From a virus (taxonomy: Duplodnaviria > Heunggongvirae > Uroviricota > Caudoviricetes): a stretch of DNA of 22,466 nt. Positions 21,731 to 22,466 of this stretch are shown here, one piece after another. Both the position numbers and the translations under genes were made by a program. The notes beneath the pieces are model-generated. The model searched no databases, was not told the origin of the DNA, and saw nothing but the letters and a program-made list of their open reading frames with translations. The stretch is from IMG/VR virus record IMGVR_UViG_2648501110_000004; one strand, written 5' to 3'. Each line of letters opens with the position of its first letter. Positions within the stretch are counted from its first letter, which is position 1.

Positions 21731-22318
21731 TCAGGGCAGCACGCCTATTGCCAGCGCACGATCGATAAAACGAAATATCAGCTCCAGCTGGGAGCCATAC
21801 TTCTCTTCAAATGCCACGGTATCCGCATGCAGCTCGTCGTGATGCTTTCTGCACAAAGGCAACACAAAAAGGTCATGCGCTTTTGTAGCCATTCCACCCT
21901 GACCGTGACCTATCAGGTGGTGGGGATCATCAGCAGGCTTTCCACAACATGCACACGGCTGTGTCTTAACCCAGCGCGTGTACTTTTCATTAACCCAGCG
22001 GCGACGTTTTGGGCGTAACATAAAAGACTCCGGCGACTCCGGATCCACTTTCAGCGCCAGCACCTTTTTCGCTTTATCCTGGATGATGCTGGTGGCAGGA
22101 ACCGAAGGCACAAGGTCACTTTCCCGGGTGACAGACGGCACAACAGGCTTCGGTAATCTCAGTGCCTTACGGGCTGCACTTTCCGGTAAGGCATCCGCCA
22201 GGTCATTACGAATCAGCCACCAGCACAGTTCCGGCATTGTCACAACGTGACTGTCATCAAAACCGAGATCCCGACGCACAACAGACAACACCCAGCGGGT
22301 ACAGTTATCCGTTGCCAT
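21731..22318 (-). CDS. DUF968 (YdfU-like) protein with a Cys/His HNH-like motif, probably N-terminally truncated by IS1
   Basis: C-terminal ...QPCACCGKPADDPHHLIGHGQGGMATKAHDLFVLPLCRKHHDELHADTV... recalls DUF968 proteins that sit just upstream of Q in E. coli prophages such as Qin. The frame stays open upstream of the ATG at 22318 right up to the IS1 end at 22369. Confidence 0.6.
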   Translation of the reverse strand: MATDNCTRWVLSVVRRDLGFDDSHVVTMPELCWWLIRNDLADALPESAARKALRLPKPVVPSVTRESDLVPSVPATSIIQDKAKKVLALKVDPESPESFMLRPKRRRWVNEKYTRWVKTQPCACCGKPADDPHHLIGHGQGGMATKAHDLFVLPLCRKHHDELHADTVAFEEKYGSQLELIFRFIDRALAIGVLP

Positions 22319-22368
22319 TGATTCCAGTCGTTCCGTGAACTGATCGCGCAGCTGGTTATCGCAGTGCC

Positions 22369-22466
22369 GGTGATGCTGCCAACTTACTGATTTAGTGTAT
22401 GATGGTGTTTTTGAGGTGCTCCAGTGGCTTCTGTTTCTATCAGCTGTCCCTCCTGTTCAGCTACTG
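22369..22466 (+). mobile_element. IS1 left end (first 98 bp, including the left terminal inverted repeat), element continues beyond the window
   Basis: GGTGATGCTGCCAACTTACTGATTTAGTGTATGATGGTGTTTTTGAGGTGCTCCAGTGGCTTCTGTTTCTATCAGCTGTCCCTCCTGTTCAGCTACTG is the canonical IS1 terminus as I recall it. Confidence 0.9.
22424..22466 (+). CDS. insA: IS1 InsA, first 14 codons (partial; GTG start at IS1 position 56)
   Basis: GTG GCT TCT GTT TCT ATC AGC TGT CCC TCC TGT TCA GCT ACT translates to (M)ASVSISCPSCSAT, the InsA N-terminus. Confidence 0.85.
   Translation, partial: MASVSISCPSCSAT

Follow-up and report, generated by a model that had tools for sequence, protein, structure and literature searches.

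An IS1 insertion within a DUF968 gene upstream of the antiterminator gene Q in an Escherichia coli lambdoid prophage

IS1 is a 768-bp element in which insA and insB' are joined by a programmed -1 frameshift. Besides interrupting genes, IS1 ends can supply an outward -35 box and so create hybrid promoters (PMC8764528, PMC9330008). DUF968 has been classed as a His-Me finger nuclease domain (PMC5714182), and the proteins carrying it form a prophage His-Me finger (HNH-like) nuclease family without established function (PMC5714182, PMC4118853). Two members of this family, both of His-Me finger group 7, sit directly upstream of Q: YdfU, which is encoded by the Qin cryptic prophage, and the mEp460 phage protein known as 'HNH endonuclease'. 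Here, we describe a locus in which a gene of the same family, again directly upstream of Q, runs into IS1. It lies at the right-hand end of a 22,466-nucleotide stretch of viral DNA (IMG/VR record IMGVR_UViG_2648501110_000004), which was analysed as a whole and is referred to as the window. The features discussed below are as follows.

21342..21713, minus strand: Q antiterminator gene, 123 aa, intact in the window (Pfam Phage_antitermQ)
21731-22318, minus strand: residual DUF968 ORF, 195 aa from the internal Met135 (ORF list; Pfam)
21731..22368, minus strand: 3' portion of the DUF968 gene, comprising 2 nt of codon 118, codons 119-329 and the stop (alignment to E. coli strain 219)
22360..22368, no strand: one copy of the 9-bp target-site duplication, CGCAGTGCC (GGCACTGCG on the gene strand; repeat found at both IS1 junctions)
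22369..22466, plus strand: IS1 left end, the element continuing past the window end (identity to K-12 IS1A)
22369-22391: 23-bp left inverted repeat of IS1, identical to IS1A
22376-22403: insA promoter-like site, CTGCCA-16-TATGAT (promoter scan)
22424..22466, plus strand: 5' end of insA, GTG start, 14 codons and 1 nt (K-12 insA1 annotation, IS1 nt 56)

The IS1 left end and the interrupted DUF968 gene

The last 98 nt of the window (22369-22466) match the first 98 nt of K-12 IS1A (NC_000913.3 19796-20563) at every position (98/98, 100% identity). As is typical of the IS1 family, the terminal repeats are imperfect and about 23 bp long (GGTGATGCTGCCAACTTACTGAT / GGTAATGACTCCAACTTATTGAT), the two arms agreeing at 18 of 23 positions; the right repeat was found on a partner contig, CYGG01000153.1, and is likewise identical to IS1A. 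The insA start and a promoter lie in or just inside the left end, again as in the family, and the promoter-like site at 22376-22403 coincides with the known position of the insA promoter in the left inverted repeat. The 14 insA codons present in the window translate as VASVSISCPSCSAT, and insA is transcribed away from DUF968 and Q. A first-pass annotation of this DNA had called the final 98 bp a canonical IS1 left end with the InsA start, as is borne out by the match to IS1A and the GTG at 22424. The identity of 98 out of 98 nt, together with a break in homology exactly at 22368/22369, is no chance event.

Both observations which that annotation had made on the adjacent gene also hold, namely that the DUF968 ORF has 195 codons from its first ATG and that its frame remains open over the 50 nt to IS1. 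The frame is open across 22319-22368 and further into IS1, until a stop at 22457-22459, and no ATG, GTG or TTG occurs in the same frame between the ORF start and this stop. The 195-aa remnant matches Pfam PF06147 (DUF968) with 272.3 bits (cut-off 27.8) over profile positions 2-171 of 171, and HNHc_6 with 28.9 bits (cut-off 26.6). The DUF968 domain occupies residues 26-192 of the remnant, equivalent to residues 160-326 of the full-length protein, and is thus wholly contained in the remnant; the N-terminal ~117 residues of the full-length protein gave no match to a Pfam family. The full-length protein had no significant match among solved structures (best E = 0.12), and DUF968 had no match among the PADLOC defence-system models. 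A protein identical to the remnant has been deposited as CTZ95056.1, 'putative prophage protein'.

An intact allele is found in E. coli 219, where the gene comprises 990 nt and encodes 329 aa (WP_001300046.1). Its nucleotide identity to the window is 99.8%, ending exactly at 22368, and the strain 219 gene runs uninterrupted through the position at which the window turns into IS1. The element is placed after nt 352 of 990, within codon 118 (Trp), in the motif C-W-H-C-D-N. K-12 YdfU (349 aa) aligns with the strain 219 protein over its full length, including the part absent from the window. The proposal that IS1 interrupts the DUF968 gene therefore agrees with intact homologs of 329 and 349 aa that align across the break, and the alignment to full-length homologs that had been recommended for checking it, YdfU included, places the end of the window's homology at 22368. 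Full-length proteins of about 330-350 aa consist of a Pfam-less N-terminal region and a C-terminal DUF968 domain; in the window this architecture is incomplete, residues 1-117 being cut off by IS1. As a separate observation, the final DUF968 residue (21731-21736, minus strand) is Pro in the window and Ala in both strain 219 and K-12 YdfU.

The junction was absent from all 5,426 complete E. coli genomes searched: in a megablast with positions 21300-22466, 65 of them matched up to 22368 and no further (best identity 99.8%). A scan for the 24-nt IS1/DUF968 junction gave 0 hits in each of the genome, viral and metagenome contig collections. The insertion is confined to three near-identical draft contigs that come from separate records and differ by a SNP or an indel. 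One of them, CDWKEG010000079.1 (L002; 23,879 nt), encodes the exact 195-aa remnant, is identical to the window except for one SNP and ends 107 nt inside IS1; altogether, L002 and the Q-side junction contigs end 104-107 nt into the element. That the window itself ends in IS1 is explained by the breaking of short-read assemblies at this multicopy repeat. In E. coli genomes with any match to the query, the median number of matching places was 10, nearly all of them from the IS1 part.

Contig ends are prone to error. With the junction situated at such an end, one might suspect an assembly chimera, or else take the 195-aa ORF for a naturally short DUF968 gene. However, the same junction recurs in the three contigs just described, the reciprocal junction exists on CYGG01000153.1, and the homology continues upstream of the break in the closest homologs (329-349 aa). 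Rather than proteins of about 195 aa with the same start, the comparison returned the 329-aa protein as the closest relative, along with the 349-aa YdfU. We consider the chance of an artefact or a naturally short gene to be negligible.

The other side of the element

If a simple insertion with a 9-bp duplication had occurred, the opposite flank should encode residues 1-120 followed by a Gly and a stop codon contributed by the IS1 right end. The predicted 121-aa N-terminal fragment (...AIRLCWHCG*) exists verbatim in the public protein collection, as CTZ98521.1, which is encoded on CYGG01000153.1 (L004; 4,730 nt). At its end, this contig reads ...CTGTGCTGGCACTGCG and then 92 nt that match the right end of IS1A without a difference; the 9 nt at the junction are GGCACTGCG. 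The same nonamer adjoins the IS1 left end in the window, in L002 and in L007 (CYGG01000067.1), a Q-side junction contig that was found via the neighbouring 205-aa protein and belongs to the same assembly as CYGG01000153.1 (GCA_001284325.1). The 9-bp target duplication typical of the IS1 family is hence present at both junctions within one assembly, on L004 and L007. When the two flanks (100 nt each) were joined minus one repeat copy, they reproduced the empty site of strain 219 exactly, over 200 nt. The two junction contigs are known together from this sister assembly, where a 1-nt indel is the only difference from the window over 4.8 kb, and the IS1 sequence seen amounts to 98-107 nt at the left end and 92 nt at the right end. 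Based on these sequences, CTZ95056.1 (195 aa) and CTZ98521.1 (121 aa) are the two halves of one gene.

The first-pass annotation had suggested searching beyond the window for the second IS1 end and a 9-bp duplication, and both were recovered, on CYGG01000153.1; direct repeats do flank the element, and the site they mark is inside a gene rather than in a naturally intergenic position. On the other hand, two of its proposals have to be given up. It had assumed that the insertion removed the N-terminal part of DUF968, yet the 117 codons plus the duplicated 9 bp are intact across IS1. It had also raised the possibility that early-region sequence was removed, yet KilA-N, RusA, Dam and PerC are present in normal order: beyond IS1, upstream of the N-terminal fragment, the usual succession of KilA-N, RusA, a LexA-like gene, Dam, PerC, an HTH gene and rha is found. 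The contig carrying them is 98.4-99.8% identical to strain 219 over the aligned ~3.8 of 4.7 kb.

These findings also bear on the idea that IS1 inserted and then deleted the N-terminal third of DUF968, possibly along with early-region genes. Adjacent deletions caused by IS1 have been documented (review PMC9330008), and the N-terminal 117 codons are indeed absent from the window itself. Such a deletion, however, would leave no direct repeat, whereas a direct repeat is present, and the N-terminal fragment, the duplicated 9 bp and the early genes all occur in the same assembly as the Q-side junction contig (GCA_001284325.1). An adjacent deletion thus appears exceedingly improbable.

What the sequences point to instead is that a single IS1 transposed into codon 118 of a 329-codon gene for a DUF968 (His-Me finger nuclease-like) protein. 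The site lies in the nin-like region of an E. coli lambdoid prophage, some 655 bp ahead of the Q start codon. On this reading, transposition generated the usual 9-bp duplication, CGCAGTGCC, with nothing deleted, and left the gene as a 121-aa N-terminal fragment and a C-terminal remnant. We favour simple transposition over deletion because the N-terminal fragment, the 9-bp repeats and the early genes are intact across IS1, and we assign a probability of roughly 0.88 to a single, simple IS1 insertion with a 9-bp duplication and no deletion, splitting the DUF968 gene upstream of Q.

A more complex history could still have followed a simple insertion, either through recombination between IS1 copies (inversion or translocation) that separated the two halves, or in the form of a composite transposon with cargo between two IS1 elements. 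The two contigs break off roughly 100 nt into the element, the halves being linked through their reciprocal junctions, and a composite element or later recombination would give the same junctions. In addition, matching E. coli genomes contain the said median of 10 matching places, mostly IS1, and the sister contig L006 has a different IS1 junction beside the same gene. Against this, a single element gives just such matching 9-bp repeats, with its left and right ends consistently oriented, and nothing demands more complexity. We therefore hold a later rearrangement or a composite transposon to be unlikely and retain the single simple insertion as the preferred reading.

The L006 contig (CYBF01000056.1, GCA_001285025.1) deserves a description of its own. 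It is 99.94% identical to window positions 17649-22368, and the IS1 target site is uninterrupted in it. In its positions 1-100, 82 nt of an IS1 left end give way to AAAACTGCGATAAC, after which DUF968 sets in at about nt 10 of the gene. Of the 14 nt at this junction, 11 (ACTGCGATAAC) are as far from the IS1 end as they are in the window junction. Another IS1 event or a rearrangement may lie behind this arrangement, or it may be an artefact of the contig end. Searches for the 14-nt junction in complete E. coli genomes, IMG/VR, GTDB genomes and metagenomes returned only two chance 19-mers, in unrelated metagenome contigs.

The finding bears mainly on annotation, as it explains the contig end and unites two deposited protein fragments. 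It also offers a clean natural IS1 insertion, both junctions of which were recovered from a fragmented assembly by means of a predicted junction peptide.

Q and the expected effect of the insertion on its expression

The Q gene begins 17 nt after the stop codon of DUF968. The gene product matches Pfam Phage_antitermQ (PF06530) with 159.2 bits over profile positions 1-118 of 118, and its location downstream of a nin-like region is that expected of a Q gene; the corresponding genes of strain 219 and mEp460 are likewise annotated as Q family antiterminators. No minus-strand promoter-like site meeting the scan criteria was found between IS1 and Q (21714-22466), and terminator-like sites in the interval between IS1 and Q showed no excess over the shuffled expectation. 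On the antisense strand of IS1A, the search for intrinsic terminators yielded one weak site, which is within the yield of shuffled controls.

As insA reads away from Q, transcripts of the early operon must cross 768 nt of IS1 in antisense direction to reach Q. Any polarity would have to be Rho-dependent, given that intrinsic terminators were not in excess. Strong Rho-dependent polarity of IS1, in both orientations, is known from the classical gal and lac insertions. As the interval between IS1 and Q offers no separate promoter that passes the scan criteria, the main functional consequence of the insertion is likely to be a reduced read-through into Q, and the prophage is probably defective in the switch to late gene expression. 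The effect on Q expression or prophage inducibility that the first-pass annotation had suggested is plausible. Polarity of the insertion on Q would mean that an otherwise intact late operon is silenced, which would be relevant only to the prediction of inducibility in this lineage. An N-type antitermination system, if the phage has one, could suppress the polarity of IS1 on Q. As to DUF968 itself, the full-length protein would be lost and is probably dispensable. The nin region of lambda is dispensable, and by analogy it seems unlikely that the loss of DUF968 is critical.

A hybrid promoter at the IS1 left end was considered as the main explanation and set aside, as the promoter scan returned nothing on the minus strand between IS1 and Q. 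The left terminal repeat of IS1 contains an outward-facing -35-like box, TTGGCA, which faces the DUF968 remnant and Q; its best -10 partner, GATAAC, is located 16 nt away in the target and, as judged by eye, is devoid of the conserved final T. We regard it as very doubtful that TTGGCA-16-GATAAC acts as a weak hybrid promoter transcribing the remnant ORF (from Met135) and Q independently of the prophage repressor. If it did, low-level, repressor-independent synthesis of Q could explain a Q frameshift that is seen in a sister isolate.

The frameshift concerns a homopolymer near the start of the gene. At 21677-21682, the window has six C on the plus strand, corresponding to G6 in Q, and Q is intact. 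In L007 (GCA_001284325.1) and L009 (Logan assembly of ERR134557), the run is G5, which frameshifts Q after about 10 codons; Q is called there as a 109-aa protein.

Prophage context and comparison with known systems

Several further genes were observed on the late side of Q. Directly downstream of Q, window positions 20649-21293 (minus strand) are AT-rich (34-41% GC vs about 50-55% in the flanks) and contain an ORF of 205-214 aa. This is the position in which morons or stx genes sit in related phages. Beyond a sub-threshold WYL-like N-terminus (E about 0.005-0.01), no family was detected for the ORF, which is annotated as hypothetical in strain 219; the one SNP separating the window from L002 falls into it (position 21098) and is non-synonymous (Ile/Val66). 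The interval from Q to the lysis genes contained no tRNA genes such as occur there in Stx phages. Between Q and the holin gene, positions 18966-20018 (minus strand) encode a 350-aa N6/N4 DNA methyltransferase that matches the PADLOC type II methyltransferase model with 506 bits. As no adjacent restriction gene was seen, it is likely to be an orphan phage methylase. Between the AT-rich ORF and the methylase gene, a 75-aa ORF (20169-20396, minus strand; 67 aa in related contigs) had no Pfam or PADLOC match and is kept as 'hypothetical protein' in strain 219.

The module of Q and DUF968 shares 97-99% DNA identity with the phage genomes mEp460, Ayreon and PhiR40_1 (99% for mEp460 and Ayreon), and the late genes in the window are long ORFs that match called genes of a related contig. 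The partner contig carries the mark of another element: its positions 1-108 are 100% identical to an IS66-like element (tnpA end) annotated in many E. coli genomes, and after this IS66-family end a rha-family gene resumes 522 nt into its coding sequence, representing a second IS insertion in the same prophage. Together, IS1 in DUF968, the IS66-family element in rha and the frameshift in Q of a sister isolate point to decay of the regulatory region in this prophage lineage, with late genes that still look intact as ORFs. The insertion follows well-known lines in its element, its mechanism and its type of consequence, and the case is one of ordinary prophage decay.

In comparison with IS1A of K-12, the visible ends (98 nt left, 92 nt right), the insA start and the promoter position are all alike, and no difference exists within these 98 and 92 nt. 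The remnant and YdfU share 68% identity where they align, and the family and the place directly upstream of Q are shared with both YdfU and the mEp460 protein; unlike in these two, the gene here is split by IS1 after codon 117, which leaves a remnant without the N-terminal ~117 residues. With respect to hybrid promoters, the IS1 terminal repeat in front of afaA in E. coli ST131 contains the same outward -35-like box (PMC8764528), and the box is also shared with the IS1 hybrid promoters of blaTEM and acrEF (PMC9330008), but the configuration that activates those genes is not found at the present locus. Finally, cryptic lambdoid prophages with IS insertions display the same pattern as the lineage described here, with no differing feature: early genes have been hit by IS elements, and late genes are still long ORFs.
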